From positions 23,188,001 to 23,252,000 of the forward strand of contig NC_043008.1 in assembly GCF_006345805.1 (NCBI RefSeq): a stretch of 64,000 nucleotides of DNA. Direction: 5' to 3'. The translations under genes were made by a program, and so were the position numbers. Shown piece by piece: positions 3,749-62,186 of the stretch; the first letter of the stretch is position 1, and each line of letters opens with the position of its first letter. A model generated the notes under the pieces. The model had not been told where the DNA came from and searched no databases. It was given only the letters and a program-made list of their open reading frames with translations. The DNA is from Octopus sinensis (Eukaryota).

Positions 3749-3848
3749 TTATTTTGATAATAAAATCTTAACGATTAAGATCTTTACACTATTATTATTT
3801 AAAAATATTTTCTCTCATTTTATTTTCTAAACAATGATTTCATTTTAG

Positions 3849-5199: not shown

Positions 5200-6104
5200 G
5201 TATGTTTTCTGTCTTAATATCTTCTGAGACTACACTTTGATTTTAGCCAAAAGGCCGAGAAGTGATTCTTCTGAAACTAGCTACTAGGTGGTCAGTGTTT
5301 TTGTGCTACCTAAGAAAGGAAAGGAGCAATGATAAATATTTATGATTTCTGACCACATCCTAGCACCTGTTTCTCTGCATCTGTAATATGCAATCTATCT
5401 CCTTCCCATAACATTACAACAAACATTTCAAGCATTTTTTTAAATCCTTGCTGTACTAAGGAGGTTATTACTTCTATCACATGTATATTTAGATTATACC
5501 GACAACTTTTTTTCAACTTACATTCAGCAAAATAAGCTTAAAACTAAACAAGACCTTAAATCTTATGGTCAATGATTCCTTTTTTTAGACATGATAACAC
5601 AACAAAATTAATTATTAAAAGCAAACAAACAAAAACACAGAAAGACATTCTCTTCTAAGTTTCTTTTATAGAAATACATACAATTTATTTTGTGTTTGTT
5701 AATGTCCAAGGTTTGTATGATATTATGAAAGAGATAAATTTCTGAAATAATAGCCATGGATCATGCGTTCTTTTCCAATGCAAGTATTTACTGTGTCTCT
5801 GGTGACCACTTAATCCAGCTGATGAGGAAAAAGATGTTGCTTCATGGAAAATTTGTCTTTAAATCACAGTTTAGTATTATGAGAATTATTAAATAATTCC
5901 ACATATATCCATCTACCTGTCTAGGTATGTCTCTTTGTCTAGCTATGTTAAGTCTATATGTATGTCCATCTCTCTATTTGTCTGTTCATTCATTTATTTA
6001 TCCCTTCCTTCCTTTCTTTCTTTCTCTCTTTTTCTGTTCTGTTTTGTTCTGTCCTGTTCCATTCTGTTCTCTTCTATTCTATTCTATTCTGTTTTGTTTT
6101 GCAG

Positions 6105-6182
6105 ATTTGCTACTTTGTTACATTTTATTGAACAGTTCCTAACAGATTTTTGTATCCCTTTTGTATTTGCTGATGGAAACAA
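6105..6182 (+). CDS. IQCH: Internal coding exon of IQCH-like gene, exon C
   Basis: Long pyrimidine tract plus gcAG acceptor, AA|GTaagc donor, 78 nt, phase 2-2. Encodes (K)FATLLHFIEQFLTDFCIPFVFADGN(K), similar to IQCH LL..vE.FL..Y.IP.....GN. Confidence 0.85.
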
Positions 6183-6410
6183 GTAAGCAGAACTGTATAT
6201 TTGCTTTTTTATTTACTGCTTGTTATCAAGCCTGGTGTTTTATTTTCAATAACTTGTTTAAATATTAATGATATGATTTTATTTGAATACTGTTTCCTGC
6301 AAGAAACTAAAAGTTACATAGTTCTCAACTTGAAATTTGCATACACACACTCTTACATGTTGTAAACACACACACACACACACAGACACATTAGTGTATG
6401 TATATTTCAA

Positions 6411-8910: not shown

Positions 8911-11497
8911 TACTGAACAGCAATTTTGTTTTAATTTTCTATCACACGAGATTTTGTTTTTACTGATTCTGTCTTTTTTGTGCTAATTTCAAATCTATAA
9001 TCAGTTTTGCGTTCCATGCTCTAGTTTTCTTGCATTTTGAAGAATAGCTTTTCATACATTTATAGTTAAATTTGACATATTGAAATGCATATATCCTACT
9101 TACGAGAAATTGAAAATTGTATTTTTTCAGGCTTCTTCAAATAGACATAGGTGTGTAAATAATCCTGATGGCTTTTGCTATGCCTGTGGCTCCTTCACAC
9201 TTTTTGGCCAAAGGCACAATATCATATTGTTTATGAGACGGGCTTATAAAGCTTATTCTGGAATTTTCCTTGGCAACCATGACAAAAAAAGTGTCCATCA
9301 TTTTGTGTGTCATAACTGTGAGGAAATGCTTCATCACTAGACAAAAGGAAAATAAAAGGCTTTGCTATTTGGAGGTCCTATGGTTTGGTGAGAGCCCAGA
9401 GACTGCACAAGTGACTGTCATTTTTGTATGGGCAACACAAAAGCATCAGCAAGAAAAATAGGTGTAAAATATCTTATCCCAATATCCTTTCATCCTTTCA
9501 ATAATTAGACCTGATTCCAGTTTTCCTTGGATTTACCTCTTCTGAAGACAAAGCTAGTAAACAAGAGTACGGGGATGATAAAGAAGATCAACAAATTACT
9601 TAAAAATTACAAGACCCCTCTTATGGTACTGAAAAATCAACTCCTCAACAATTTAACTAAACAGAACTCAATGATTTAGTGCATGATTTGGGACTCTCCA
9701 AGACTGCAGCTGAAGTCTTAGAGTCCAGCCTGCAAGAAAAACATCTACTTGACCAAACTCAAAAGATTCTTCTTTTTGAAAACAAGACCAGATTTTTGTG
9801 TCATTTTTTTTCAGAAGAGAAACATTTTGTTTATTGCCATGATATTCCCAGTCTTCTTCAGGAATTAGGCAACTATTTCTAGATAGTTCTAAGTGCAGCC
9901 TGAAGTGTGTTCTACACAATGGCAATGTTTATGGAGCTGTCCCAGTTGGTCACTCAGTACATTTGCAAGAAGAATACAATGACATAAAAATAGTTATTGT
10001 CATGAGCACAATTGAACCATTTGTGTAGATTTGAAAATGGCCTAATTTCCTCCTTGGTCAATAGAAAGGTTTGACAGAGTATCCTTGCTATCTCTGTATG
10101 TGGGACAGCTGATATCAAGAGAAACACTGGATTCAGAAGTGGTTCATTCGTGATACTCTGGAAGCAGGCATGCCAAATATTTTCTCACCACTTCATATGA
10201 AGCTGGGCTTGAAGCAAATCACTAAGGCATTGAATACTGATGGTGAATGTTTTTAACATATAGTATCTGCATTTCTTGGTTAATCATTTAAGAAGATCAA
10301 AGCAGGTGTGTTTGACAGACCTCAGATTCATGTCCTTGTAAGTGATGAGGAATTTGTCAGAAAGATGAATGACAAGGAAAGAGCTGCATGGCTGCCATTT
10401 GTAACAGTCATAAAAATTCTCTTGGAAACTGAAGAGCAGATGATTATGAAATGTTTGTCAATAATATGTTGTCAGCTTTCCATGATCTTGGGTGTAACGT
10501 GAGTGTTAAACTCCATTTCCTGCATAGCCACCTTGATCAATTCCCCGAAAACCTTGGATATGTATGTGATGAACAAGGAGAGCACTTTCGCTAGGACCTC
10601 AGGACCATGGAAGTGCATTATCAAAGGTGATGGGATAAAAGCACAATGGCAGACTACTGCTGGAGCATTAAACAAGATTTCCCTAAGAAAGTCTACAAAT
10701 GCAAGAGCTCCAAGTGCAAATTCTTGTCTGAATAAGATCTATTTGTGTTTTATCTTCCATCTTAATCAGTTTCTCAACTATTCTTTTATTCTTTTACTTG
10801 TTTCAGTCATTTGACTGCAGCCAAGCTAGAGCACTGCCTTTGAACAAATTGATCCCATGACTTATTTTTTCTTAAGCCTAATACTTATTCTATTGGTCTC
10901 TTTTACTGAACTGCTAAGTTATGGGGATGTAAACACACCAACACTAGCTGTCAAGTGGTGATGGGGGGACAGACACAGACACAAAATCATACACAGACTT
11001 CTTTCAGTTACCATCTACCAAATCCACTCACAAGGCTTTGGTTAGCCCAAAGCTACAGTAGAAGACACTTGCCCAAGATGCCATGCAGTGGGACTAAACC
11101 AAGAACCATGTGGTTGGGAAGCAAGCTTCTTAGCACACAGCCACGCCTATCATTTGTATATAATATATACAACTGAAAAACAGATGGTGCAAAAAACTGG
11201 CACATGATAACATTTATTTTATACAACATCAGAATAAGAAATATTTTTTATAGCCCAATTCTTATTGTGGTGTACTAACTCATATATATGAATAAAGTTA
11301 GAATCTCAATGCATAGATATTTGTTCTTTTCCGCCTTAGAAAATTATCAGATAGATTACCTCATATCTTAGAAAAAAAATTTGGAAAAAAATCTAGAGCT
11401 TACAGAGAAAAACTAACTTCATATTTGAATTCAGCATACTGAAATTAGGTAATACCAGTTGTTATTATCAATGCAGCAAAAATTTTGTTGGCCAGTG
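8911..11497 (+). mobile_element. Chapaev3-like (CMC) DNA transposon with decayed transposase
   Basis: Remnant motifs CVNNPDGFCYACG, FGGPMVW.EP...DC.FC, DSSKCSLKCVLHNGN, PLHMKLGL, HFLHSHLD.FPENLG, MADYCWSI. Imperfect termini: (t)ACTGaacagcaattttg at the left and aaaattttgttggcCAGTG at the right. TAA at both flanks (8908-10, 11498-500), consistent with a TWA TSD. Confidence 0.75.
10781..11148 (-). mobile_element. tRNA-derived SINE (octopod-type) inserted in the Chapaev3 element
   Basis: Reverse complement of the SINE at 40592-41009, with the same head, cttgggcaagtg core and tgactgaaacaagtaaaaga tail. Confidence 0.85.
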
Positions 11498-17346: not shown

Positions 17347-18840
17347 TCATTGTTCGACCGTGGTCGAGACAATGGAATTTACCATGCTATGCCAGACTTT
17401 ACGGTCCATCATGGCATTACGGAGGTCCTGTTGCTGGATGCCTGTATCCCTGGAGATTACATCAGGGTAGGAGAGGGTGCGCCCTCTGGTATTGCGAGTA
17501 GATGGCTTCCAGTGGAGAAGAATAGAAATTACCTCTTTTTCAGCTCTACAACAATGTCCAGCAAACTGGACTCTCTTACCTTTCACAAGAGATGACACAG
17601 GTGGTAGTTTCCCATATATTTGCATTTTGGTTGGATGGCGCTTCCACGAAAGATTTTGAGCTCTCATAAGGAGGCGAGTGTAGGTTCCATCCAACCGCCT
17701 ATCAAGCTTCTTTGATAACGTCCAGGTTTCTGAGCCATATAGTAGAATTGGTTCGACTGTGGCTTTGAAGATTTCAAGTTTGAAGTCTCTACTTAGATTT
17801 GATGACCAGATCTTATGCATGTCATTACAGGCTGACCAGGCCATACCCTTTCTAGTTAGAAAGTCTTTTCCAGATGATATGTATGACCCAAGATATTTGT
17901 AATCAGAAACCATATTTAAGGGCGCATTGTTGAGAGTATGGATGATGCAATCACTGTTGGACAGGCACTTGTTTATGTATTCAGTCTTGGCCTCATTGAG
18001 GTAAAGACCTACACAATTTGAGGCTTGTTCGAGAGATTGTAAAAGAGACTGGGCATTGGAGAGAGAATCACTGATAAGAGCGATGTCGTCAGCAAAGTCA
18101 GTGTCTGTCAAGTACTCAGCTGGGTGTCTGGAACTTCTTCTTGGTTTTATTTCAAAGCCCTTGCCAGAGATGGTATCAACTGACACACGTAGCACATAAT
18201 CAACAATGATGAAAAAAAATGGGGCAAGTGCGTCTCCCTGCAGTATTCCGGCTTTGATTGAGAAAGATGATGTTTCTCCATCAGGGGTTAAGATGGTTGA
18301 AGACGTATCTGTGTAGAGGGCCTTGATGGCGGAAATGATTTTGTCTGGTATCCCATAGAGGATTTCAAACATCTTGTACCTATCTACAGAATCGAACGTT
18401 TTAGAAAAGTCTACAAATACCATTGCAAGATCGCGATTAAATGCTTTTGATTCTTCAATAAGTCTGCGTAGGCATAGTATCTGGCTCAGCGTTGAGCGCC
18501 CATTTCTGAATCCATTTTGGTTCTTTCGGAGCAAAGGTTCAACAAAAAGGACAAGACGATTTAGGATCAGTTTGTTGTACAGTTTTGCAGCAATTGACAT
18601 TAGAGATATACCCATGTAGTTGGTGACGAGGGATAAATTGGCTTTTTTGGGTATTTGGATGATTTGAGATTGGTGCCAAATCTTTGGAGCGACAAAGGTG
18701 GAAAGTGTGTGGTTGCAGAGGTTGAGCAAAAGTGTGTGAAATCTATCATCCTTCCAAATTATAGCTGGGATGTTGTCGGGACCAAATGCTTTCGAGGCTT
18801 TTAGTTGCTTGGTGGCTGCTGTTAGTTCAAATATGGTAAA
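17347..18840 (-). pseudogene. Reverse-transcriptase half of the family B LINE ORF
   Basis: QNGFR, FVDFSK.FDSV, GILQGD.LAP, FADDIAL, YKYLGS and LLYGSETW. The frame stays open upstream of the annotated start as far as the homopolymer run (FTIFELTAATKQLKASKAFGPDNIP). Confidence 0.88.
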
Positions 18841-20387
18841 AAGGGGGGGGTGTTGATGTCCAGCGTGTCTGATATAGGCACACTTGGAAGAGTGGGGTTA
18901 TCAGGGATTTTGGCATTCTTCCCAAGGAGGTTTTTAAAATGGGTTGACCAATTTTCTAAACGCTTCTTAGCTGATCCCCCTTTAATTCTAATTGATGACC
19001 CAGAATTTTTGCCTGATAGGTCTTTGATGGATTTCCAGGCGAGGTGGTGTTTTTTACTAATGTGCTCTTTGGATAGTTTACTAATTTTGCCATTGATAAA
19101 GTCAACCTCGGCGTTCAAGTAAGCCTCATCAAGATTCTTCTTGACAGCTATGAGTTGGATCTTCAGTGACTGGGATGGAGAATGGTGGTAAGCTAGTGAT
19201 ATAGACTTTAGATGGTTTCTGGCTTTGATGACATTTGGGGAATTAGAAGGTTTGCTCTGGCCCCATCTCTTCTTTTTGGGAAGAGTAGCCAGTGCAACTT
19301 CCTCTGTTAATTTGATGAGGCTGCTGTATACTTCTTCAATGTTCTCAGCATCTATTTCAGAAGTAGACAAAGATTGAAATGTGTTATAGACCTCAATAGT
19401 AAATTGTTTGGACATATCAGGGTTAGATAAGACTTCCTCCCAGTCGATCGTTTTCATTGGGTGAGGCTTAGCTTTTTTGGATGAGCGAAGACTAAGCTTA
19501 ACGGTAGCTGATACAATTCTGTGGTCAGAGCCAACAGAACTAAAGGAAGAGTAAGATCTCGAGTTTTTAACACTATTGCGCCACTTCTTTCGAAAGATGA
19601 GGTAGTCAATTTGTGCCCTATCACCAAGTGGGGACCCAAATGTCCAAAGTTGACCTTTTGGTTTCATAAAAGAATTGTTGGAGGTGTAGAGATTAAATTC
19701 CTCCAAGAAGTCTTTGAGCATTTCTCCGTTCCGATTAGTTTTAGAGTTGAAAGTAAACTTGGTCTCATCGGGTCCTAGTCTAGCATTCAGATAACCAGCT
19801 ATAACTAGAAAATTATGGAGAGGTACTTGCTCAATGGTTGAACGAAGGGTTGTATAAAAACTCTCAATCTCATCTGCCACAGACGAATTATGTGGGCTAT
19901 ACACACATACCAATGTTGTTTTGGGGTTTCCATCTATCTCAAGCACCATAATTCTAGGTGAGATTGACTCTATACTCAAGAGAGTATCACTGGCTTTTGA
20001 TGAAAGTAGAAATCCGGTACCTCCAACTGTTGAATTAACAGTATTCTTTGATGCTGAGGAGGTTACAAGTTGATAAGAACCGACTTGATGGTATTTGAGG
20101 ATGTTGTCAAGGTGGTAAAATCGGTGTTCTTGGACAGCTATTATATCAATGCCATGTGATTCTGCATTTGCACCAAGTTCTTCTAGACAGCCAAGAGAGC
20201 CGAGGGTGTGGGCATTGAAGGTGCTGAGTATCGTATGATTTTTACAGCTGATGAGGTGTTTGTTTGGTGTTGTTTGGTTGGGGGCTGACTCTTCTCCATC
20301 AGGTGATACCCGTCTGTTAAGATTAAGGGCATCACCGTCAATGGATGCCCTTGGAGGTGCAACGTGATCAGAGACAGGACCCAGCAA
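18822..20387 (-). pseudogene. APE endonuclease half of the family B LINE ORF (521 aa)
   Basis: STFN, IIAVQEH, VYSP, G.LNA, QIDY and SDH motifs. The frame ends just after a C8/T5 homopolymer run at about 18838-18850. Confidence 0.85.
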
Positions 20388-22749
20388 AGCAGGGTCTGGA
20401 CCTACATCCGCAGGTATACCATTAGGTCTGGTTCCCTAGGGAAGAGGAACCCTGGTGCAGTTAATTGTAAATTCCATAGTCTTTGCTCCCACACCTGAAA
20501 TTTCTTCTCTAGTTCTGGTAGTGATTCAGCTATAAGAACAAGACCATCAGTATAAAGGAGCTCCAAGAGCAGCCAGTCTTAAATTCCTCTGTTATGGCCT
20601 GAAGGGCTATGATAAATAAAAGAGAGTTGAGAACTGATCTTTGGTAAACTCCTTCCTCTACACTAAATTTATTGCTATACTCATTGCCAACTTTCACCTT
20701 ACTGGCAGCATCCCTGTACATGGCTTGTACAGCTCTCACTAACTGCTCCTCTAACCCTAATTTCCACATTGACTACCAGATAAGGGATTGGGGTACCTTG
20801 TCAAATGCTTCTCCTTGGCTAAATGCTTCTCCTGCAGTTGCTTTACTAGGAAGATCTATCTAGGAAGTGCTATCACAAGTGCTATCTAGGAAGTGCTATC
20901 ACAAAACTAAACTGCATTTCATCTAGGCTAACTCTCTTCCAAATTAGTTGAATTATGACCCTTTCTGTAACTTTCATCACCTGGCACAGCAATCTGATAC
21001 TTGTCTCAGGTGTCACCTTTCAGACTAAAGTATTACCTTTAACTCTGTAGCAGCTGATTATAATGCTGCTACACAAATGATTGGGTTTGACTCCTTCATG
21101 GACAACCTAATTAACTATATTGGTGACTAAGCCATATCCCACTCTGCCAGATATTTTTAAGCATCTCAGCAGTGATTCTTGGTGGGTCAGGACATTCCCT
21201 GTGTTCATATCCTTAATTGCTTTATCTAACAAGCTACTGTCTATTCAGATTGCTAGTCCCTCTGTTGCATCCACATTAAGCAGACACTCCTTCCCTCCAT
21301 GCATTCTCTACATTCATCAGCCTTTCATAGTGACACTTCCAAGCATCTTTATTTGAAGAATCACTAACTTCAAGTGAACCATCATCCATGCAAACACACT
21401 TCTCACCTACAACATCACAATTTTCCCTGACATACTGTCTTGCAATCTGAAATACCTTAAGTCTCTAGGCCTCATGCCATAGAACATTGGAAAACTTCCT
21501 CCTTTCTGCTTCTCCCCTAGCTAAATATACCTATCTTCCAGCTTCACTTTTAGCTACCTGATATAATTCCCTGCTACCACTACTCTTCTGATCCTTCAAG
21601 GATTCTGTTTCTTTGCTTTAATGGTTTTGTCTGCTACACAGTTCCACCACCATGTCACCCTAGGTCTGGATGGGACTTTGCACCAGCCACAAATTCGGTC
21701 TGTGAGCCTCATAAATTGTCATGTAGGAATTTCCAGTTGTTCTCTATGTTACATGTCACCATCTCCACCTCCTCCTCATCAGACGCTTCAATTAGAACAT
21801 TTCTAAATCTCTGACTACTCAGAGGATTCTTAAGCTTCCACATCATTTTTTTCCCAAACTGCTTGCTTCTTGACATCCTTGAAGCCGGAGATCTGAAGTC
21901 ACTAACAACTAACCTATATTGAGGAGTGCACTCTTCACCTGGAAAGGGATTTGCATTTATAAGCAACCATCTTTCCTGCTTTCTGGTGAGAATGTAGTCA
22001 ATCTGGCTTGTGTGGCCACTCGATTGATAGGTGAACAGGTGTCTGGCTAGTTTCCTGAAATTACTATTGCAGATCATAAGGTCATTTGCATCACTGAAAA
22101 CCAGTAGCCTAGTTCCCTCCTCATTTAGGGAACTCTCTCTACAGTCTCCATGCACAAACCATGAAAGTCAACCAGATATTGTCTAGCATGCCCAACATGC
22201 CAACATTGTCAGTTATGAAGAGAAGTTAACTGTCATTTGTCAATGAAGTAGTCTACAAAAGGGTGTCATAAAAGCAATCTTTCTATTTGTCTGTCAGCTC
22301 TGGTTGAGGAGCATAGGCAGAAATAATAACTGATGTTCTACTTTGCAAAACTAGTCTAAGCATAAGTATTTGATCACACAATCTAACTTGATTGCTTTAT
22401 CAAACCATTCTACAACAAAAAGTATGCTCACGTCACTAACCCAATCACTAATGCCTACCCAGAAGATTTTATACACATGTTCTTTGCTTGTAAGAAATCT
22501 GGTAGAAGCTCACCTCCACCTTACTTCTTGTGCAACACACTTTCATTCCAGCATCTCAAATAATCTCACCAGATGTACTTTTCAATATACTCGCATTGAG
22601 TGTGCCAACTCTAAGAGTGAGGAAAGGGTGGCAAGAGAGAACAGGAGTATGGAGGTCAACATTCTGCAACTGAAAAATAGGTTTGCATGGACATTTGCCA
22701 ACAGATATATCATATAGGTTCATATAATTTTCAAATAAGTTTCATCCTA

Positions 22750-27260: not shown

Positions 27261-27572
27261 CTACCAGATGACCATCTTTGTAATCCCGAAAAACATTGTT
27301 ACCATTGGTCCAGCTGTCTGGCCATGAAGAGAGAACAGACAAAGAGATAGAGAGATGGACAGACAGACTGACATAATGCCCATTCTAGTAAGATATATAG
27401 TGAATAGAGCTTCATCTCTATATAATCCACCTCCTAATTCAAGAAATTCATTATGTATACAACTAAGAATATAAATACCAACTAAATCGCTTACCTGAAC
27501 TAAATCACTAGACCACATGGTAATGTTGAAATTATCAGGCCTATCAATTGTAGTCCAATACTTCGAATTCAA
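27261..27572 (-). mobile_element. Penelope-like RT fragment
   Basis: NFNITM.S.D..QVSDLVGIYIL and GGLYRDEALF, matching the PLE RT core at 52000-52401. Confidence 0.7.
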
Positions 27573-28797
27573 TAATGATTTTTCTTGCTGCGAGTATATG
27601 TATATATATATATGGATTTGTTTGAATGTGTAGGTGTGTGTGCTCCATTTTCATTTTTTCTCTAGCTTTTTTATATCTTTGTATGTAAATTATAATCAAA
27701 GAAGAGATACATCTATATTCTGACTTATTTTCTGTGTTATGAATACATACATGCATGCGTTCACACACACACACACATTCATGTCCATACACACTTTTAT
27801 TCGTTTGTTTTTATATCCATTTTTCTGTGCTAGCAATCATTAAATATATATTAGTGAGGCACTGTTTTTACAGCCAGATGCCCTTCCTGTTATTAACCTT
27901 TACCTCTTTTTTGAGTGAGGGATTTGTTATGGGATTGAACCTGAAACTATGCAATTGGAATTAAATTCTTACCTGAAACTTCTCTGCTCTTTTTCTCTTG
28001 TATCTTCATCAGCAGCATTTCATTTCATTTCAAGCATGCATGGACTGTTTTTTCAGGTGTCATCTTGCATTTCTCTCTGTGAAATTGTAACACAAATATT
28101 TTTGTGACCATATGTATTAAGTTTTTAAAACATTGATATATTTAGAGATGGGAGGTCTGAAATTGAGTAACACAAAACATATCAATAAACTTCCATCCAC
28201 AACTTAATGCAAAGTACGCTGATTTTTTCAATAAATATACACAAGACATTCTGGTTATAGGTCCAGTCTACTTGTGATATCTAGGGGTTTGTGTTTGAAA
28301 ATCTCACAATGCATTGGGAATGATGTACGCAGTAATTTGTTGATTATTGCTTGTGAGAAATTTGTCATGAGCAATTGATGCAGTTGGTACTATGATGTGA
28401 GCATTCTAGTACTGTGTACAAATCCAGCAATAACACATGTGATGACAAATGGAGATCGAATTCCTCAAATTATAATGTAGTTGTAAATATCAAACATTTT
28501 TTCCTTCTCTGACAATGAGATCACTAGTTTCAAAATTACGATCTTATTATCAATAACTCATCTCAAACATTTAGATATCTACTTTTATGAATGAATTTAA
28601 ATATTGTTTTATGAGTTGCAAGTCATTAGCAAGCATTGATTTGCCCCTCTGGAATAACTGTTATTTAGGTGTCATCATATCTTTGTTACGAGCATGTAAT
28701 CTGAAAATTTGAAACTGAAACATTTTGATTTCAAAGATGGTAAAAAGTATATTAATGTGAATTTTGTTTCTATGAGGTCTAATAACTCTATGGTAAC

Positions 28798-29124: not shown

Positions 29125-29233
29125 ATTAAAAGATTTTGTCAATAGAGTTGGAACTGAAAGACAACCTGAAGTCAAGGATCTTATAAATATGTTAATCAAT
29201 CCTAAAACAATAGAAGATATTGTCAAAGTACCT
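29125..29233 (+). CDS. IQCH: Internal coding exon of IQCH-like gene, exon D
   Basis: ttttctttAG acceptor and CCT|GTgagt donor, 109 nt, phase 2 start matching exon C. Encodes LKDFVNRVGTERQPEVKDLINMLINPKTIEDIVKVP, similar to the IQCH segment just before the first IQ motif. Confidence 0.8.
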
Positions 29234-29558: not shown

Positions 29559-29928
29559 TTGTGCAGTGGTGGTGGATGATAATAATTCACCGTTCTAAAT
29601 GACCTGTGGCGGGAATATTTAAACTTTTGCAGCTGTCAATGCTTTCTCTCTATAGATACAGACATACAGTGAGAGAGGTGGTGGGAGAAAGAGTGACAGA
29701 GAGACGAAGCTGTCAAACATCGTTATAGAGAAAATGTGGAGGGAACTCCACATTTTCTCTATAACGATGTTTGACAGCTTCGTCTCTCTGTCACTCTTTC
29801 TCCCACCACCTCTCTCACTGTATGTCTGTATCTATAGAGAGAAAGCATTGACAGCTGCAAAAGTTTAAATATTCCCGCCACAGGTCATTTAGAACGGTGA
29901 ATTATTATCATCCACCACCACTGCACAA
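29559..29928. repeat. Perfect palindrome with 183-bp arms and a 4-nt GGAA loop
   Basis: 29559-29741 is the reverse complement of 29746-29928. No mismatch seen. Confidence 0.97.
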
Positions 29929-38313: not shown

Positions 38314-39186
38314 CAGTATGATGATCATTTCGACTAATCCTGCAACTCTCCATTATGGGTATGATTTTGTGCATCTAATTGCGTTGCATCAATCTGTGCA
38401 GTTTGTGTCACATCAGATACATGTATAAAGAAGGGAGTGTTGGGCTAGATATGCTGACCTGTCCTAGGAATGTTGTTTGTGCTTGCTGTTTCTTATCTAT
38501 GACCAGCTAACAGTTGTCTGTGGGTATATAATGTAAAAATTAAAGTAATAAAATGTAAGGAATATAACCTAATAAAGAAAGATTAGATTTATAGATTACT
38601 GGGGAGGAGTGTACACTCACAGTCATGAACACACACTCACACAAATGCACAGACACTTCCACACATGCACACACACACACACACACTATAAATTAAAGAT
38701 ACAGAACCATAGAAGGAGAGTAAAACTGTTAAAAAAAAGATTACATTAAGATTAAGAGGCAGGATTCTGTGTTCATTGAGCATAGACACATATATAGGCA
38801 TTTTTTGACAGTTTTACTCTCTTTCTTCTATGATTCCGTGTCTTTAATTTACAGTGTATGTAGGTGTGTGTGTTCATGACTAGGAGTGCACACTCCTCCC
38901 CATTAACCTAAATCTAATCTATCTTTCTTAAGTTGTATTCCCAATATTTTATCACTTTAATGCTTGTGTTATATACTCACGGACAACTGTTAGCTAGTCA
39001 TAAACAAGATACAGCAGGCACAAACAACTTGCCTAGGACAGGTCAGTATATTTAGCAGGACATTCCCTTCTTTATGCATGTACCTGATGTGATGCAAACT
39101 GCACAGATTGATGCAACACAATTAGATGTACAAAATCCTACCCAAAATGGACAGTTGCAAGATTAGTCAAAACAATTGTTGTACTG
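38314..39186. repeat. Diverged inverted repeat (~400-bp arms) next to a PLE fragment
   Basis: 38314-38737 matches the reverse complement of 38800-39186, with many transition differences. Confidence 0.88.
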
Positions 39187-39269: not shown

Positions 39270-39587
39270 CATTGGTCAACTGGACAGGATCCTAGGTTGA
39301 AACAGTTAGGCTCTTGGTATTGACCTTGTATAATGATATTCTTCATGTTGGGGCAGTGGCTATATAATAATTTCACAGAACATCTATTAAATATTTTCCT
39401 GTATCTGTGAGTTGCTGGAAAGTCTTTGTCTAGGAGGGAGAGGAATCTTTTACCTATTTTAGTTTTTATATAAAGGGAAAAGGAGGGGCAAACCAAATGA
39501 TTTTCCGTGGCCTATTTGTAGATCTATTATTATTCTGATTGATATTAGTGGGGTTATCTATTACTTTATTTTTGATACCACTAGGTA

Positions 39588-47255: not shown

Positions 47256-50200
47256 CATTCAGTAGTTTTATTTTTATAATGTGCTTTCACTTCACTACCA
47301 AGCGCAGCTCTGTGTGCCTTGGGTATGTGCTGTGATTTGTTGTGATGCTCTGATGATTACTGTATTGAAAGTGTTCTGTGTAGGATGTGTGCTGTGCCTA
47401 GTAGTGCAATTTTCTGTATGTTATATGTGTTTGTAAGTCCTGGTGTTTTTGTTATGTATTTGTCTGAATATTTTTTATCATGCCTAATGCACCTACTATG
47501 ATAGGAATTGTTTCTGTTTTTAGATTCCACATTCTAGTTACCTCTATTTCCAGGTCTTTGTATTTTGAAAGTTTCTCCATTTCTTTTAGAGACATGTTGT
47601 CATCTGCTGGTATTAATACATCAATTAGAAAGCATTTTTTTCTCTTCATGATCTCTGACAACTATATCTGTTCTGATGGCCTTAATTTATCTATCTGTGT
47701 GTATCGGCATATCCCAGAGTATGGTTGCTTTCTCGTTTTCTGTGACCTTTTCTGGTGTGTGCCTATACCATCTTTTTTCTGTTGTTATTTCATAATGTTG
47801 GCATAGCTTCCAGTGTATGTAGGTCCCAACTCTGTCGTGTCTGTGAATATATTCCTTCTTAGCCAGGACTGGGCAGCCAGAGATAATATGATTTATTGTT
47901 TCTTGTCCATCTCCACATATTCTGCAGTTACTTGTTATATTTCTTTTCAACCACTGCTGGGATTTTTCTTTGTCTATTTCTTTTGCATTTAGTTTAGTCC
48001 AGTACTTGCCATGAAGGGGCTTTTCTTGCCATCGTTTTATCATGGTCCGTTGCTGTTCTAGTTTTAGTTTTGATTTCATTTGCTTTATAGCTTTTGTTGT
48101 GTTTTTTCTTCTCCTTCTTCTTCTTCTTCTTCATCTTCTTCTTCTTCTTCTTCTTCTTCTTCTTCTTCTTCTTCTTCTTCTTCTTTGTTAGGTGGTATGA
48201 TTTCTTGTTTGTATTTGTCAGCTTCCTTAAATACTGAGAACAATTTTTTGTTTTGCTCGTGTTTTGCCGCTATTTGTATCAGTTTTCCTTGCTTCTGAAG
48301 TAGGTATTTTTGCAGTCCTATGGTGGTTATTTTGTAGTAGTTTTCCAGCTTTATGAGGCCTCTGCCACCTTCTATACGTTGTATATATAGTCTTTCGATG
48401 TCAGATTTTGTGTGATGCATCCTAGATCCTGTCATTATTTTTCTTGTTTTCCTATCTATTTTGGTTAGTTCATTTAGCGTCCAGTTAAGGGTATTGTAGC
48501 TGTAACTTATAACTGGGATGGCTAAAGTGTTAATACCTATTATCTTGTTTTTAGCATTGAGCTCTGTTTTTAGTATTGATCTAACTCGTCTATAGTATTC
48601 TTTCTTTATTTTCTCTTTCATTTGTGTGTGTTGTGTCTTATCTAGTTCATAGATTCCTAAATATTTGTAAGTTTGGCTTTGGTCTAATTCTCTTATTTCA
48701 TTGGCTTTATCTAGTGTAATGTTGCTACTCTTAACTAGTTTTCCTCTTTTCAGGGTTACTTTGGCGCATTTTTCTAATCCAAATTTCATATCTATTTCTT
48801 TGGTGAATCCATGGACTGTCTTTAGTAGTGTTTCCAGCTGTTTGTCATTTGTAGCATATAGTTTTAGGTCATCCATATATAAAAGGTGGCTGATCGTTTT
48901 GCCGTAACATTTATATCCACATCCAGTTCTATTTAGCATATCAGATAGAGTTGACAGTGCCAAGCAGAAAAGGAGTGGAGAGAGCGTGTCTCCCTGGAAT
49001 ATTCCTCTGCTAATGGTGATGGCTTTGGTTTTCACGAGTCCCCCTTTTGTTTGGAGTTGTAGCACTGTTTGCCATTTATTCATATAGTGTCCTATGTATT
49101 TTATGATTGTTGGTGCTACTTTGTTAATGGCTAGTGTTTCGAGGATCCATGTGTGGGGAATGCTATCAAACGCCTTTCTATAGTCAATCCAGGCCATACT
49201 GAGGCCTTTCTTCTTTCTGTGGCTGTCTTCATTTATGGCTTTATTGATCATTAGTTGATCTTTACAGCCATATGAGCCTTTGCGGCATCCTTTCTGCTCT
49301 TCTGGAAACAGGTTGTTTTCGTCCAAGTGCTTGTTTAATCTTTGTGATATTACCGCAGTGAATGCTTTGTACATTGTAGGGAGACAGGTTATAGGTCTGT
49401 AGTTTTCTGGTTTTGCTGTCTCATTGGATTTGGGAATTAAGATGGTTTTCCCCTTTGTGAGCCATTCAGGCATTGTCTCTGGCTCTGCCAGTATGTTGTT
49501 AAAGTTTTCAGCCAGCTTTTTGTGCATTCCTGTCCGATATTTCAACCAGAAGTTGGGGATCTTGTCATGCCCAGGTGCCTTCCAGTTGCTTAGTCTTTGC
49601 AGTGCCTGGGTGACCTCTTCAGTTGTTATGGGGGTCCAAAGTTGCTCAGATGCTGAATTTGTTGTTTTAATACTCCTTATTTTGGTTGTTCTTTCACCGA
49701 CCATATTTCTTTCCAGAATTCTTCCACTTCTTCTGCTGTTGGTGCTGCAGTGATGTCTATTTTATTTTTGCCATTTTCTTGGTAGAACTTTTTGGGGTTG
49801 GAGTTGAACTGTTTGTTTTGTTCAAAGAAACGTTGGCGTTTCTCATACCAGTAGAACCTTTGTGCTTTGGCAAGGATATCTTGCTTTAGCTTTTCTTTTT
49901 ATCTCAGGTAATTCTTTTTCTGTGATGTTGTATTTGCACAGTATTTTTATTTTATTTTTGTTGCTTAGTAGCGTTGATTGTCTACTGATTTCATTAAGAA
50001 TTGCCAGATCTTTTCTCATTTTTTGTATTTTGTTTTGGATGTTATTTATCCACAAGGTTTGTTTGGGTGGTGGTACTCCTTTTTGGATGGGTTTGAGGGA
50101 GTATCCAGCTTCTTTTGTGGCTGCAGTGGCTGCTGCATATACTAAGTCATTTAGCTCAGTGATATCGCTATTTGTTTCAGTGGCTATTAGTTCTGTGATG

Positions 50201-51289
50201 GCTTGGTTTATGCTATTTATAAGTGTTGTTGTTTTTTTGTCTATTTTGATTTTTGGGAGGTATGTTCGGTGGTCCATTTTGAGATCTGTATTTTTCAGTT
50301 CTTTGATTATTCTACTTTTTATAGTATCATAATCATTAGGCTCCCCTTCATTGTTTCCAGGTTTTAGATTTGTGTCGCTTTCTTTCTCATTCGTATGTTT
50401 GTCTGTCGTGTTTTGGCTTGCTGCTTGTTGTGCATTATTATGCATCCTTACGGTCTGGGTTTGCTGTTTTTTGTTTACATCGTTTTTGTGGGAAATGTTA
50501 CGTTTGTCTTCGTGTTTTACTATCTCAGTGTTTATATTATTTGGCATTGTTGTGTGGCTTCTATCTACATTTTCCTGATGTATTTTTCTTTTAAATGTTC
50601 TATTTCTATTTCTGATATTTTTTTTGCGTTGAGAATATATCTTCGTATGTTAGCTAGTTTATTAGGGTTCATTGCTGTATCCAAGTCTTTGTTTATGTCA
50701 TTTTTCTTCCATATTTTATATGTATATGTTGTTATGTATTCGTTCTTTGGGTAGAGCACTGCTGTAAAGTAAGCATGTAGGATTGAAATGTATTCCTCTC
50801 GCGTCCATTTATGCCTTTTTGGTTTTATTTGCAAGGACGTGAGGAACAACGTCTTGCCCATTATTTTGACGGTCGTCATTTTCGTTGGGTACTGGCCCGT
50901 TCATTTCTGTTGTCACATTGTTTTGCACATGTAGTTTTTCGTACTTTTTGTGTAACAAATTTAAAGTTCGTACTTCCTGATTGCTATTCTTGGGTTGAAT
51001 AATACTGGTATTATTTAATTTATTCGTAGTTTTTATGTACATGGTGTTTGGGGCTGAAGATGATCTGTTGTTGATGGATCGTAATGTATCAATCATGTTT
51101 ACATGGTTGGAGATGATATCGAGTTAAAATACATCATTTCATTTGGGAAATAGCAATAAATTTCAATGATATAGTCCAATCCTTTGTTAGTTAGTTTTTT
51201 GCTCCATGCAATGTCTTTGTTTCCGATGTTTTGTGGATAGATTTCGGAGCACTGTTTTATCACTCTCACATGTTAAATGTTCCCCGGTG
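47255..51289 (-). mobile_element. R4/Dong-clade non-LTR retrotransposon (RT plus restriction-like endonuclease), frameshifted
   Basis: 539-aa ORF with WKAPGHD, CKDQL, WIDYRKAFDSIPH, GIFQGDTLSPLLF and YMDDLK. CCHC CRICG...HIISGC, RHD, and RLE motif LIDV.IP...K..KY..L. N-terminal KWTREE. Flanked by (TAA)n on both sides. Confidence 0.9.
48110..48185 (-). repeat. (GAA)n microsatellite giving in-frame poly-Glu in the Dong ORF
   Basis: (ttc)n run on the + strand. Confidence 0.95.
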
Positions 51290-53482
51290 TTATTATTATT
51301 ATTATTATTACCATTATTTTTAACAATTCTGGCTAATCTTATATTCTTCCTATTTAATCTAGCTATGATGGTACTTATATTGGGGAGAGTAGAGTATAAG
51401 ATTCTAACCATCTTACGTGAAAAGATTCCATTATATCTATGGGAATTAGGGAAGTTTTTTTCTAAAATAGCCATAAATCTACTATATATGTTTGTGGATA
51501 TTGTTTAGTTGAAACCATATGAGATTTTTACCTTTAAATTTTTTATGTAAGTAAGGGTAGGATAAATTTGTGCTTTCTCTGCTCCCTAGAATTGTGCCAT
51601 GAATAATAGTTTTGTATTTATTTCTATTGGGTCCTTTATTTGGAGGAGTAACCATTTCTTTTTCATTTTCATCTATTTTATTTAACCCAAGTTTTTTACT
51701 TTTATTAGTATCCAATCTACTATCGGAGTCTACTCTGTTATTATTATTTAAAATGTAGGATAGGTTATCAGTTTGTATTTTTTCATAACTCAGTAAGTTA
51801 GTAGACTTTCTATTACTTAAACTATTCTTATTTTTTCCTCTATTAAAAAGTGCTAAACTCTCCGGATTGAGAAAAGTAATTTCTTGGTCATATCCCGCTT
51901 TAGACAAAGCAACATTATAGTGGTATGAATGGGAATTAAAAATCTCAATGTTTGATGATAATTTAGTAATTCTCCTTGAAATACTTTTAACTACTGATTT
52001 TAATACATTGGGGGGGGGGTTGTTGATAATTTATTCACATATCTTATAACCTCACCTTCTTTCCTATAGGGGTAGTATAATTTAGAATTAATGTTTAAAG
52101 TAGTATCTAAAAAATGAACTACTTTAGTGTTATATTCATATGTAATACTTAAGTTAAAATTTTTGAAAAATTTTCTAATTCCCTTTCTCATTCTTTCTAT
52201 GATTGATTTATTGGTGGTAGGGATGATGAATAAAGCATCATCCCTATATAGACCACCTTGTAATTCAGGGATTTCTTTATTTAGACATCTTAACAGATAC
52301 GTGCCCAATAGATTAGTGACTTCAGCTGAGTTGCTGGAACCGTTAGGTATATCAAAATTTTCTGGAGTCAGTCCTAGTCCTAGTCCAGAGTTTGCCCTCA
52401 AATTTTATAATAGTTCTAGCTAACAGAATTATATCAATTTTATCCCTAGTTATGAGAGAGAGAGAGAGAGAGAAAGAGAGATCTTTAGCTAAAATAAGAG
52501 TCTTGTTAAGGAGGATGGGGGATATACTTGAATAATAACTATTTATATCAAATTGGATAAAAGAATAATTACTATCAATAGATTTGAACCAATGAATTAC
52601 TTCATCTGTATCAATCCATAATTTTAGAGTTAGGTTGGGAATTATAAGGGGTAGAATATTGTCAAGAATAGACTTGCTAAGCCGGCCAATATCCAACTTA
52701 GGTGGGCATATAAATCTTACAGTAGGATTATCCTGGAAGTTCTTTTTGTGGTCTTTCAGGTTAATCCTAGGTTCGCTTGGTGTTCGCTTGGTGTTCGTGG
52801 TTCTGTTCGGTCTGCTAAGTCATATTCCATTATAACTTCCTTGATTTTCAAATTGATATCCGATAGATTCTTTTTTGATGTTATTTTATATTTAGCGTTG
52901 AGTTCCTTCATTACAAGTTTACTATAGGTGGTATAGTCAAACCTATATAAGTTTCTGGTTTTATCTGTTGGGACCAGAATGCCTGGTTTTGTTATGCAAT
53001 GACTTAATAAATTCCTTTAGTTTCCTCAGATGTAAGTTTTTTCTTAGTGGGTATTCCTTGAATTTTACATTAGCAATACGATTGAATAAATCTTTTTCAA
53101 AATTTTCTAGTAGTGGATTAGGTGACAGATTTTTTCTGCTTTTGAATATCTTTTTATAATAATTCTTCTCATGTGTTTCTAGAGATTCATTTTTCTTTGT
53201 AGCATCTTGATGGTAAGCAATCTACCTTACCTGTCCAATAAACTCGTTTGTTCTATGGATTAGTAGCCACGTATAGGTGTCTTTACTATGTAAGGGGATG
53301 TCCTTCTGAGAAAATTCTATATTTACCTTTTCCATCTTGCTGAAAATTAAATATCAGAAATATACTCTAGGTATGGTAGATGAGTTCAGTAGAAATTTAG
53401 ATTCAGATGAATATGGTACGTAATTTGAGGCACCAGAATTTAGTATGGTATTATCCATACAATTTCAAAATATGGTGATTAA

Positions 53483-55159: not shown

Positions 55160-56982
55160 CTGTTACAGTTGCTGTTGCAGTTACTGTTGGCTGTAGCCAG
55201 TATTGTGTTTGGATTTATTGGATTTATTTTACCAATTACCGGAAAAAAAAAAGATTCATGCCAAGGACCATATTCACATTTGGCCGGGAGTACCTGTTGG
55301 CCAAGAAATTGGATTTTTGCTGTGTGGATTGTTTTTCTTTTTTTCCGTCTATCTTTCCTGATTTTATCTTTCTTTTTGAACTGTTTATTTATTTTTTTGA
55401 CTTTCTTTGTTATATTTTTTTTTGACTGTTTCTGTTAACTTTTTGTGTACCTTTTTGGACGTTTTCTCTGACCTTTGAACATTCTTTGAACTTTTAAAAC
55501 CTTTTTTGGCACATGGCAAAAATAAACGGTGCCTCTGCTTTGGAATGGGAGGTGGTTCCTCCCAAGCAGTGGATTAAAGATCTTGAGAAAAGGACGGTGG
55601 TACTATGGACCTATTCTAGGTCGCAAGATTGTGACAGAGAAAGAATTGGCAGACTGCCTGCCAACTATAAAATTTATTCCACAGGGGATCAAATTTGCAA
55701 TGGTCTGGTTGCTATTTGGTACCCTCCGAGGAAGCTGGCAGATTTGCCAGCGAGCCCCTTGAGGGGCAAGAAATTTTGTTCCTCCCCACTTATTGTGGGA
55801 GGAGGGTGATCAAAAGCCTGGGTATGTGGGCTACCTCTGGGCACAGAAGCAGGATGGATTTGTGATACCATCCGGTAGGGGCTGGGGGATAGCGGGCTCA
55901 GGCTCTTAAATGTGAGAATGATGCCAGCGGTTGACTGGGAGGGGGTCAAAAGCAATTTCGACCTTATGGACCCCATCGGCCGCAGGTGAAATGGTATTCT
56001 CAGACTTCTTAAAAATGGCTGGCTGCAGGTATCCAGTGATATTTGAGAATCGCTCCCCCAAGTGTCACTCGTGCCTGGAGCCAGGCCACATTAGGAAGGC
56101 GTGCCCCCGGGGCCGTAACATGGCCCTAGTACAGGAAAGTAATGTGCCCACCCCCATCCCCTGTGGCGGGGGAGAAGGTGGAAGTCGTGGAGGAAGTTGC
56201 CTCCACAAAGAGAAAAAGAAAGGTGAGCAACCAACAATGGTTGCTCACCAAATAATGTGCAGGCGGCACAAGAGGCGGAGGGAGATAGTGTCCCCCTGTG
56301 TTCACCAACGCAGGCCCCTGCCCCCGCAGCCGCAAAGAGAAAGAGGAAAAGGAGGAGCAGGACAGTTGGCGGATGGCCCTGTGCCACCTATTGAAGTGCC
56401 AGTGGGATGTGTACCACTGGTGCGTGAGGCTCTATCAGTGGGAGTTGTGCCACTGACAGAGCAGACAGAGACCTCTCCCCCTGAAGAGGAGGAGGATTTT
56501 ATCCTCCTTTACCTCAAGGGGGGGGGGCTGTCAATGAATACTTGGGTGGCTTGGGCAATTGAGAACGCGTGTTCTCAGCATGTTCAAGCAGTCCAAGGTG
56601 GCCTCCGCAGGTAACTGCGGAGGTGGTGAGTTATAAATTGTGGCACTGTGGGACACAAATATTTGATAAAAGGCACTTCACCTTCTTCTTTCTGAACTCC
56701 CGGCTGTCAACGCGGTCTGCTCTGCAGGTGGCTAGATATTTGACTGGCGGTCCGGAAGGGGGAGGAACGGAAATGTGATAGTGTATTTTTGATGTTTGAT
56801 TGACTTTGTAATTTTTAAGTAATAAAAGAACCTGTGATTTCGAAGGGTGTTCGGTCTACGAGCGCTGAATACCCTTCCCATTTACATCATTCGTATTTGT
56901 CATTTTCATCTCATTAATGTATATGTCCAGCCCACATTGCTTCTCTGTAAGGCCTTTATGGCCAATTTGATAAAATAAAGAA
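55160..56982 (+). mobile_element. Non-autonomous L1/Tx1-like element carrying only a gag-like ORF1
   Basis: T-rich 5' leader. Broken ORF from ATG 55513 with a CCHC knuckle (CHSCLEPGHIRKAC) and a basic/Pro-rich tail. GC-richer than the flanks. 3' end with AATAAA signals. No EN or RT remnants. Confidence 0.6.
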
Positions 56983-58541: not shown

Positions 58542-58580
<39 letters not shown>

Positions 58581-58622
58581 GAAAGAATGGAGTCGAACGA
58601 CGATTTTAACAAAATTCTTTTA

Positions 58623-58705
58623 CTCTCGACACATGTTTCGAAGGCTGCATATTCCTAATTCCGAAGGAATAAAGGGTGCATTATGCCGCCATCTCATCAG
58701 GAAAG
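58623..58705 (-). ncRNA. Type I hammerhead ribozyme in the PLE terminal repeat (left arm)
   Basis: Minus strand: CUUUC-CUGAUGA-GAuGGCgGCAUA...UAUGCaGCCuUC-GAAA-C[AUGU]G-UC|GAGAG. Stem III is minimal, with palindromic ACAUGU. Confidence 0.82.
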
Positions 58706-61700
58706 ACAAGGAACTTATGTCAGCACCATGAAGAGCAAAAACTTTTAGATGACTGCCCACATGATGTCCACAGTAATAATGAGTGTTTCTTTAAAATATC
58801 CCGTTATAAGCAATGACATCAAAGTTGGTTGGATGGAGAATGTTCTGAAGAGTTTAAGAGTTCAAATTTGGTTGGGAGGAGAAAGCTCTAGGAAGGGGAT
58901 AGAGTGCAAGCTGTATTGTATGGGGATGCGTTCATGCTTGTATGTGTGTGTGTGCGTGACTGTGTGTGTAGGGTGACAAATATCAGAAACATTTAGTAGT
59001 GAGGTGACAGATTTGTGTCTGTGTGTTCGATTGTGGGTATGATAGATAGAGAGAGAGAGAGAGAAAGAGAGAGAGGTGGGGAGATGCAGAGAAAAAGAGG
59101 AAAACATATCCCAACAAATTTAGTAGTAATTCTTCATGTAACGTAGTAGAAAAAAAGAAATTGTCTATGGTGGTGTTGTAGAAGTGAAACTAAATTATTA
59201 AAATCAAAGAGGTTATCTATACTAATCATCATTCATATGAGAGGAAAGTATGTCTCTGCCAATGTTTGCACTTATAGGATTTTTCTATAATTGTGTTTAC
59301 CAAGGGGAATTTGGAGAAAAGGATAAAGAAGAGTTCGGAATTACAAAGGCCACAGAATTTCCTGTCCTTATCAAAAGGAAAAGATACAGATAATATGGAC
59401 CAGTCCAGTTTGAAAGTTATATTGCTGTCCTTAAGACGCCATACTTATTTACTTAGTCCTGTACTCTGTTGTTTTCTCTTATCTCAGAAAGTTGAATAAT
59501 GATTAGAAATTCTCTGGGGCAAACAAGAAGTTGTCGCGCCAATATAGAAGAAGACACCGGCCCTGGAAGAAATCCTACACTGGTAAATGGAGTTTTTAAT
59601 TTTGGAATTACTGGATAAGAATTTTAATCTGTTAGGGTTTTCCTCCGAGATTAAAACGGAGTTTCTATTGTTCTGATTGCTGTTAACATTACTGCTAGCG
59701 TTGATCACTACACTATTTCTATTATTGTTATTATTATTAGTTGTACTATCACCGGCAATATCCCTGACAATAGAAATGCTGTCGTTGCTACCATCAACAC
59801 TACCACTGTTATTAATTTGACTAATACTATTACTAATATTACCATTGTTAATACTAACGCTGCTACGAATGTTGTTATTATCAATACTACCTCTATCATT
59901 ACTATTGTATGTTTGGTTGGAATTGGTGAGAATAGTGTTGTAACTCCCGGGTGAAGAATCTTTGTTTAGCAGCTTATTATTATGGGAGGCAATAATTTGC
60001 GAAAGATTTTTAGTATTAGAGAATGCAATCCTTACCCTATGCAAATTGATAATCGAGTAATACCTAGAATCCCTGGGAAATTTCTTAGCTACGGCCTCAC
60101 GGAACTGTAAAGGAAGGTTTGATTTGATTTGCTTCCCGAAAGGTATAACAAACCAGATATAGTTTTTTGTGGATTTAGAATTGGTCATATTGCTACCATT
60201 GACAGTAAAGGGAAAATTTCTATGTTGGAAATTTGGGGTTGGTTGTCTATTTCCTCCTCTGGTCTGTAAATTACTTTTCTTATGTACAGAAATAGTGAGA
60301 ATAATGATTCCAGCTCTAACAATGTCGGCACCCCTGTACATAAGAAAAGTAATTTACGGACCAGGGGAGGAAATAGACAACCAACCCCAAATTTCCAACA
60401 TAGAAATTTTCCTTTTACTGTCAATGGTAGCAATATGACCAATTCTAAATCCACAAAAAACTATATCTGGTTTGTTATACCTTTCGGGAAGCAAATCAAA
60501 TCAAACCTTCCTTTACAGTTCCGTGAGGCCGTAGCTAAGAAATTTCCCAGGGATTCTAGGTATTACTCGATTATCAATTTGCATAGGGTAAGGATTGCAT
60601 TCTCTAATACTAAAAATCTTTCGCAATTATTGCCTCCCATAATAATAAGCTGCTAAACAAAGATTCTTCACCCGGGAGTTACAACACTATTCTCACCAAT
60701 TCCAACCAAACATACAATAGTAATGATAGAGGTAGTATTGATAATAACAACATTCGTAGCAGCGTTAGTATTAACAATGGTAATATTAGTAATAGTATTA
60801 GTCAAATTAATAACAGTGGTAGTGTTGATGGTAGCAACGACAGCATTTCTATTGTCAGGGATATTGCCGGTGATAGTACAACTAATAATAATAACAATAA
60901 TAGAAATAGTGTAGTGATCAACGCTAGCAGTAATGTTAACAGCAATCAGAACAACAGAAACTCCGTTTTAATCTCGGAGGAAAACCCTAACAGATTAAAA
61001 TTCTTATCCAGTAATTCCAAAATTAAAAACTCCATTTACCAGTGTAGGATTTCTTCCAGTACCGGTGTCTTCTTCTATATTGGCGCGACAACTTCTCGTT
61101 TGTCCCAGAGAATTTCCAATCATTATTCAACTTTCTGAGATAAGAGAAAACAACAGAGTACAGGACAGCAATATAACTTTCAAACTGGACTGGTCTGGTC
61201 CATATTATCTGTATCTTTTCCTTTTGATAAGGACAGGAAATTCTGTGGCCTTTGTAATTCCGAACTCTTCTTTATCCTTTCTCCAAATTCCCCTTGGTAA
61301 ACACAATTATAGAAAAATCCTATAAGTGCAAACATTGGCAGAGACATACTTTCCTCTCATATGAATGATGATTAGTATAGATAACCTCTTTGATTTTAAT
61401 AATTTAGTTTCACTTCTACAACACCACCATAGACAATTTCTTTTTTTCTACTACGTTACATGAAGAATTACTACTAAATTTGTTGGGATATGTTTTCCTC
61501 TTTTTCTCTGCATCTCCCCACCTCTCTCTCTTTCTCTCTCTCTCTCTATCTGTCATACCCACAATCGAACACAGACACAAATCTGTCACCTCACTACTAA
61601 ATGTTTCTGATATTTGTCACCCTACACACACAGTCACGCACACACACACATACAGGCATGAACGCATCCCCATACAATACAGCTTGCACTCTATCTCCTT

Positions 61701-61887
61701 CCTAGAGCTTTCTCCTCCCAACCAAATTTGAACTCTTAAACTCTTCAGAACATTCTCCATCCAACCAACTTTGATGTCATTGCTTATAACAGGATATTTT
61801 AAAGAAACACTCATTATTACTGTGGACATCATGTGGGCAGTCATCTAAAAGTTTTTGCTCTTCATGGTGCTGACATAAGTTCCTTGT

Positions 61888-61970
61888 CTTTCCTGATGAG
61901 ATGGCAGCATAATGCACCCTTTATTCCTTCGGAATTAGGAATATGCAGCCTTCGAAACATGTGTCAAGAG
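61888..61970 (+). ncRNA. Type I hammerhead ribozyme in the PLE terminal repeat (right arm)
   Basis: ctttc-CTGATGA(61893-99)...C-GAAA-catgt-GTC(61963-65)|aagag. Core intact. The first stem I pair is lost (G>A) relative to the left copy. Confidence 0.75.
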
Positions 61971-62186
61971 TAAAGGAATTTTGTTAAAATCGTCGTTCGA
62001 CTCCATTCTTTCATTTATTCATAGTTTAAAAAAACACACAAATTTACACACGAGAACACAGGATCCCTGCCCTTGGCATATAGCTTCAACCGTGTTTTCT
62101 GATGTGAATTTGCTACCCAGGTATCGGTTAACCGAATTATCCATACTAGGATAATTCATTCACCTTCTTAAATATATATATATATA

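Follow-up and report, generated by a model that had tools for sequence, protein, structure and literature searches.

The two head-to-head arms of a Penelope-like element (PLE) in the genome of Octopus sinensis were probably laid down in one insertion event, in which both nicked strands of a (TA)n target primed cDNA synthesis, each at a different fixed site on the element RNA. The locus lies in a 64,000-nt stretch of contig NC_043008.1 (positions 23,188,001 to 23,252,000 of the forward strand), here called the window, and positions are those of the window unless otherwise stated; sampled copies carry L numbers and public sequencing runs X numbers. The features of the locus are as follows:

58545..58574, no strand: (TA)n target, left flank, in which no target-site duplication can be discerned
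58575..60289, minus: left arm, a 5'-truncated PLE copy without tail, its outer end at S1 (equivalent to 62018)
58612..58717, minus: left-arm type I hammerhead, in antisense orientation to the host gene; core at 58700, the pair at the core preserved, one distal pair of stem I missing
58778..58782, minus: Inr-like putative transcription start of the left arm, outward-facing, A at 58780, placed by the 5'-end peak of the family
59229..60289, minus: ORF remnant of the left arm, with Asn-rich linker, GIY-YIG, CxxC/CxH end and premature stops
60290..60333, plus: spacer, native PLE sequence, with AG microhomology at 60288-60289
60334..62018, plus: right arm, sense PLE with ORF remnant, 3' UTR and pLTR
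61811..61816, plus: Inr-like motif TCATTA, putative transcription start at A61813, at the 5'-end peak of close copies
61876..61981, plus: right-arm type I hammerhead, with its core at 61893, a cleavage site that follows C61965, a branched stem II and a stem III of 2 bp
62018..62023, plus: site S1, first fixed terminus and putative reverse-transcription start, with 57 of 135 mapped ends at 62018 or 62023
62019..62172, plus: tail of about 150 nt, continuing into the 5' UTR and ATG in full-length copies
62165..62172, plus: site S2, second fixed terminus and putative reverse-transcription start, with 59 of 135 mapped ends at 62170 or 62172
62173..62183, no strand: (TA)n target, right flank, with a common dispersed repeat after it

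The insertion is a dead, 5'-truncated PLE in which both arms are inactive. A preliminary description of this DNA had reported two arms of about 1.7 kb around a 44-nt spacer, and the mirror repeat has just this form (58575-60289 and 60334-62018 around 60290-60333), the palindrome measuring 3444 nt and the whole insertion 3598 nt, with the right-only tail adding 154 nt and both outer ends adjoining (TA)n. The same description took the spacer to be native element sequence on the plus strand, as is borne out by L002, L003 and L010, which continue through it into the upstream ORF, and named the element Penelope-like, in agreement with the RT and GIY-YIG of the family copies, the hammerhead and the pLTR arrangement. 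A 2-nt AG at the central joint fits both sides, as a microhomology would.

The scattered differences between the arms, likewise described beforehand, all appear in the alignment of one arm to the other, which contains 16 substitutions in 1680 aligned columns and six indels: single-nucleotide indels at 60625 and 61278, a 29-nt deletion at 61162 flanked by AGGAC repeats, 5 nt duplicated at 61190, and two microsatellite slips of 2 nt each. Transitions account for 15 of the 16 substitutions and five are of CpG type as read from their sequence contexts; 14 of the 16 substituted positions show a single state among the remaining close copies, stray single copies aside. The transitions, the CpG decay, the AGGAC-flanked deletion and the duplication look like natural decay. 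Consensus errors may account for two homopolymer deletions of 1 nt in the right arm. The inactivating changes are a TGA at 61136 in both arms, the frameshift at 60625 and the 29-nt deletion in the right arm, and a further stop in the left. A selenoprotein or Naiad reading of the TGA was rejected, five close copies having C there and the endonuclease being C-terminal.

The element family was characterized from a genome search with the ORF remnant, in which 40 of 1677 candidates were scored. The natural full-length copy L038 is arranged as pLTR, tail, about 50 nt of 5' UTR, ATG, RT, Asn-rich linker, GIY-YIG, 3' UTR and pLTR, and in family copies the RT motifs (YRDD) share one frame with the C-terminal GIY-YIG endonuclease. 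In Pfam, one of four family ORFs gave a GIY-YIG match (E=0.005, under the curated cut-off), and the window's ORF remnants returned neither a GIY-YIG match nor anything informative. The DKG motif is modified to DKT (QSDKT in L210 and L212, PIDKT in L038), and the endonuclease is devoid of CCHH, with one Cys between SIY and YIG and an FCGLC..E..N..CKH end that places CxxC and CxH around E and N.

These characters point to the Hydra clade of EN+ PLEs, which is distinguished by a C-terminal GIY-YIG, DKT, a CxCX5C linker, RWK and (TA)n (PMC8557442). The C-terminal GIY-YIG, DKT, the missing CC pair between GIY and YIG, CxxC and CxH about a conserved E and N, a canonical hammerhead and (TA)n targeting are all common to that clade and the octopus family, in which TA repeats lie within 16 nt at 129 of 135 mapped ends of sampled copies. 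By contrast, the octopus family has an Asn-rich stretch of 85-139 aa instead of the CxCX5C linker, the RWK position reads RLL in L038, the sole full-length copy read, and the unit is about 3.3 kb, its 5' pLTR not counted, against less than 3 kb in Hydra (PMC8557442). CxCX5C is absent from all 35 linkers read, two of them from the window, which contain 26-35% Asn and 0-2 scattered Cys, and a C-x-C..CP linker motif is kept in 54 of 71 homologues; the N-terminus is IRIRLLAFF in L038, a single decayed copy, versus MRWKAFF in homologues. Because the CxCX5C linker is missing, we call the element Hydra-like rather than Hydra proper, not a typical member of the clade, a call made from motifs with no named reference PLE among the 71 homologues. 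The loss of the linker zinc finger with an intact (TA)n bias argues against the linker as the sole targeting device.

Other assignments were discarded. The endonuclease is not N-terminal as in Naiad and Chlamys, and a non-LTR retrozyme is ruled out by the ORF remnant and by an arrangement that is inverted, not tandem; the arrangement of PLEs, a partial tandem or inverted pLTR with a tail on one end, is found in the L038 unit and in 46 of 48 pairs. As a separate observation, L204/L205 (G000:C18:16640000-16659600) contains tandem and inverted full-length-type copies of 97-99% identity and is a possible recent source region.

The two fixed ends emerge from a census of about 97 non-redundant stretches drawn from five genome searches; each search scored 40 of 458-3757 candidates, so that the collection is a convenience sample in which some loci may be haplotype duplicates. 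Insertion ends were called by alignment, giving 48 head-to-head insertions and 51 single ends. S1 and S2 are about 150 nt apart, and one end of each kind is present in 46 of the 48 sampled head-to-head insertions; S2 is never paired with S2 (0/48), and the remaining two (L032, L122) join S1 to an atypical end. In the subset recovered with ORF queries, which involve no selection on ends, the combination S1 plus S2 occurs in 28 of 29. Single ends comprise 29 at S2, 19 at S1 and three atypical, a split from which mixed pairs would arise by chance in about 48% of cases, as compared with the 46/48 observed (binomial p=6e-13).

The arms of the 46 pairs differ widely in length. The S2 arm is the longer in 19 and the S1 arm in 12; the S2 arm is tail-only in five, the inner ends lie within 50 nt of each other in eight, and two are unmapped. 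In 17 of the 46, each arm carries sequence missing from its partner, so that, as they stand, neither arm is a copy of the other. The preliminary view of the left arm as a further-truncated copy of the right is too narrow in the light of the 48 family pairs, which suggest that it is probably a second cDNA started from its own fixed site. The window locus is one of the eight pairs with coincident inner ends, three of which end at the putative transcription start. Arm lengths are uncorrelated overall across the sampled pairs (rho -0.10), and a length-based coincidence test (8 observed vs 3.5 expected, p=0.013) took in two miscalls, L185 and L198, and is not relied on. Duplicated arms in the sample have a median length of about 250 nt, against 1.7 kb in the window, and the tail is about 150 nt (40 measured values, 115-160 nt).

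Several sampled pairs are themselves altered. L190, of about 4.4 kb, has inner ends about 30 nt apart and a deletion of its own, about 550 nt, in each arm; the internal deletions of L190, L220 and L198 may reflect an instability of long palindromes. In the S1 arm of L213 (G000:C15:67121000-67130900), unit positions 1652-2639 are missing and the sequence picks up again 7 nt from the end of the S2 arm, either by hand-over on one RNA or by later deletion.

The locus belongs to a known kind of PLE structure, its arm being unusually long. Penelope, Naiad and rotifer PLEs also have a 5'-truncated inverted copy next to the 5' end, a single-ended tail and an Inr in the pLTR, and Adineta Pen2a likewise has Asn-rich inserts between RT and EN; their tails are 30-40 nt, in contrast to about 150 nt in octopus (PMC8557442, PMC3846280). 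The inverted arm of 1.7 kb in the window and the one-S1-one-S2 rule, counted here, set the octopus family further apart from them.

The nature of the template can be approached from the 5' ends. Of 30 5' ends of close copies that lie inside the pLTR, ten fall at 61811-61815, on the A of TCATTA and with differing flanks; the queries, starting at 61700 and 61800, favor ends upstream of about 61830 but not that exact base. Position 61813 is probably the transcription start. Single copies with only S1 and those with only S2 alike reach it (L134, L138, L065, L069), and in L182 the S1 arm stops at 61812, its partner extending 1.57 kb further. In the short near-perfect palindromes L075, L125 and L140 both arms end at or within about 15 nt of the putative start, as expected if both cDNAs run to the 5' end of the RNA. 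The ribozyme cut site is not a hotspot of 5' ends, with two of 30 at 61960-61972 and none exactly at 61966; because copies carry the whole hammerhead and the cut site shows no end peak, the template appears to be uncleaved RNA, as it is for Poseidon PAc (PMC11167929).

Further observations may bear on the RNA. A possible 65-nt intron of the 5' UTR (GTATCG...ATACAG) spans S2 in L038:8078-8190 (minus strand) and L218, with the window counterpart at 62122-62172; it parallels that of Penelope, and its donor context varies between subfamilies. Native ORF sequence of the family is covered by contig 5 (1349 nt) of X7, which may be an RNA run; none of the public runs recorded as RNA contains the window stretch. 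In the tail, the fold of the window copy has z=-4.3 and 16 of 30 copies have z below -2; a conserved hairpin is unsupported, the consensus of the 30 reaching -1.2 kcal/mol with no covariation.

In the event proposed here, a probably dimeric RT-endonuclease would nick both strands of the (TA)n target; one strand would start cDNA at S1, giving the left arm of 1.7 kb, and the other at S2, giving the tail, right arm and spacer, 1.9 kb in all. The two cDNAs would have ended no more than 44 nt apart, probably at a common block or at the 5' end of a shared template, an unprocessed RNA with an intact hammerhead; their 3' ends would have joined via the AG microhomology, with repair filling in, and the arms would have decayed after insertion. 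The end points are read directly from the genomic copies; the priming, the dimer and the shared template we infer.

Two known systems bear on this reconstruction. In vitro, Poseidon PAc, a predicted dimer, cleaves both strands and extends them from two start sites on either side of the tail (PMC11167929). It resembles the octopus family in its two bracketing start sites, AT-rich targets, extension of both strands and uncleaved template, and differs in that its sites are adjacent and inside the ORF, while the octopus sites are 150 nt apart and upstream of the ATG. Counting against the model, PAc showed no difference in start-site use between top and bottom strands, and the available text does not discuss inverted insertions (PMC11167929); the one-of-each rule is a deduction from genomic end points.

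L1 twin priming offers the second comparison: both target strands prime on the RNA and a 5' inversion results, joined by microhomology, the second primer acting at variable sites and the two cDNAs not overlapping. The octopus pairs share the two-strand priming on RNA and the microhomology joint, and the five tail-only pairs look exactly like L1 inversions; they differ in that the sites are fixed and the cDNAs usually overlap, hence the palindrome. A broader and more tentative proposal for the family is an asymmetric, fixed-site form of twin priming, in which a dimer might give one strand the upstream and the other the downstream start, often on the same RNA, co-terminating cDNAs would yield kilobase palindromes, and the linker would be unneeded for (TA)n targeting. 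The two-site priming favored here connects the inverted pLTRs already known with the pair of start sites seen in vitro for Poseidon. In the literature, as far as its available text extends, no statement was found that derives the inverted arms of PLEs from priming of both strands at the two start sites; one may be contained in Evgen'ev and Arkhipova 2005 and Arkhipova 2006.

The main rival, a fold-back origin in which an S2-primed cDNA folds at a 2-nt microhomology and copies itself, the endonuclease then cutting the new duplex at S1 and unequal arms resulting from later central deletions, seems unlikely, even though near-perfect palindromes with short spacers, such as the 44 nt of the window and those of seven other pairs, are its expected product. 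Junction palindromes have been read as self-priming, on an antisense template (PMC3846280), and the tail has been attributed to endonuclease resolution (PMC8557442); large one-sided deletions do occur (L190, L213, L220, L198), as do local fold-backs at several junctions (L053, L140). Nevertheless, self-copying requires kilobase one-sided deletions in most of 36 pairs, five of which would have lost the whole shared part, and does not readily explain the S1-only single copies (19 of 51 single ends) or the S1 arm of L182, which ends at the putative start of transcription with a far longer partner next to it. In Poseidon, moreover, both sites act as RT starts in vitro (PMC11167929).

The shared variants of the two arms raise the question of a later origin of the left arm, in which a local inverted duplication, or gene conversion starting from an older single copy, would have formed it; this is improbable. 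Thirteen variants, including the TGA at 61136 and four CpG transitions, are common to both window arms and absent from the closest sampled copies (comparison sets of five, then six copies), so the arms come from one source lineage. The ratio of shared to differing variants is 13:16 in the window versus 87:402 in the other 39 pairs (Fisher p=0.001), and no arm-arm substitution occurs over 60414-60954, where six of the 13 lie; this excess fits later arm-to-arm conversion or a decayed source. Against a post-insertion origin, the left arm ends exactly at S1 in (TA)n, as do the S1 arms of other pairs, shared private variants do not rise with shorter spacers (rho -0.04, n=36), and contigs of runs X1 and X2 carry some of the 13, which may be variants of the source. 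Conversion could also have acted on top of the two-site priming favored here.

The placement of the element inside a host-gene intron, made in the preliminary description, is upheld. An IQCH exon at 29125-29233 (plus strand), matched by direct translation and absent from the tblastn listing, and the next exon beyond the window, at the window equivalent of about 85267 and 91% identical to Octopus bimaculoides IQCH, contain consecutive IQCH residues and flank the element; earlier IQCH exons are at 3848-6183. The intron measures 56 kb, with the gene on the plus strand, the right arm sense and the left arm antisense to it.

The window contains other repeats. Just downstream of the 29125 exon, a perfect 183-nt inverted repeat with a 4-nt loop (29559-29928) is non-PLE and related to a local repeat, and could be a fold-back duplication or a read artefact; an older inverted repeat at 38314-39186, whose best piece is 278 nt at 84%, is probably a MITE-like element. 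Decayed copies of other Hydra-like PLE families occur in the same gene, at 52355-53016, 39272-39511 and 27264-27650 (all minus) and in L171:394-2973, the last retaining RMRWK and a CNCR linker. Other transposon remnants, at 48088-50900 and 17350-20435 (minus) and 55498-56614 and 9041-10591 (plus), comprise two non-LTR retrotransposons whose RT frames are long, an ORF with a zinc knuckle and a transposase-like frame that has decayed.

A hammerhead near the end of each arm had also been described, and this stands, with cores at 61893 (plus) and 58700 (minus) and a supported family fold, except that the position first given, 61888, lies in stem I. In the family fold, stem I is long and holds an internal loop, stem II branches, and stem III consists of 2 bp and a palindromic loop. 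Taken from the window copy and applied to 28 related sequences, the fold pairs 93.8% of cells, with five pairs showing two-sided change and slid controls at 32-49%. Rfam at the gathering threshold gave no match in the whole window. In the sense hammerhead of the window, G61966A turns the core-adjacent C-G pair into C.A. Of 28 aligned sequences 27 retain C-G there, this copy being the sole exception, as do 79 of 86 matches of a wider motif scan. Hammerheads with minimal stem III are dimer-dependent, need a tandem partner and cleave poorly (PMC4209133), and the PAc ribozyme depended on its protein (PMC11167929).

In the host pre-mRNA the arms could pair into a long duplex, with predicted uninterrupted runs of 330, 291, 255 and 222 bp; the hammerhead paired to its antisense is predicted at -187 kcal/mol, and the ribozyme fold at -17.6. 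The sense ribozyme is unlikely to cleave the host pre-mRNA, because the core-adjacent pair is lost, stem III is of the dimer type and the antisense partner would bind far more stably. The earlier suggestion of folding-controlled self-cleavage is weakened by this C.A and by the 2-bp palindromic stem III. It is therefore very doubtful that the palindrome acts as a folding-controlled ribozyme switch or as a selected dsRNA in the host pre-mRNA; the plus-strand gene does place both arms in one intron and the duplex would far outweigh the ribozyme fold, but the sense ribozyme and the stem III are compromised as described, and the arms are decaying with no sign of selection. Octopus and other cephalopods show heavy A-to-I editing, and processing of the putative arm duplex by ADAR or Dicer is plausible.

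Hardly credible is an assembly artefact from a fold-back long read, since such a read would mirror the tail and flank too and the mirror halts at S1, short of both; no contig spans the center junction in five public runs (X1-X4, X7), although X2 contigs did show the junction of another copy (L006 type), rare variants are lost from contigs and this insertion could be polymorphic, so the reality of the palindrome rests on internal evidence, the decay of its arms (set against the two homopolymer deletions) and its halt at S1, and the earlier rejection of a read fold-back is probably correct.

The origin of tandem and inverted PLE structures and the microsatellite bias have been named as open questions (PMC8557442). 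What appears to be new here, from sequence comparison, is the long tail, the lost linker finger, the counted one-S1-one-S2 rule and a testable mechanism, and the family census weighs more than the locus itself. The rule (46/48) gives a sharp prediction that can be tested in existing in vitro PLE systems. If asymmetric twin priming is true, the octopus Hydra-like family would show the rule plainly, and the linker would be dispensable for (TA)n targeting; if the rule holds, PLEs would be a routine source of long intronic inverted repeats in octopus.
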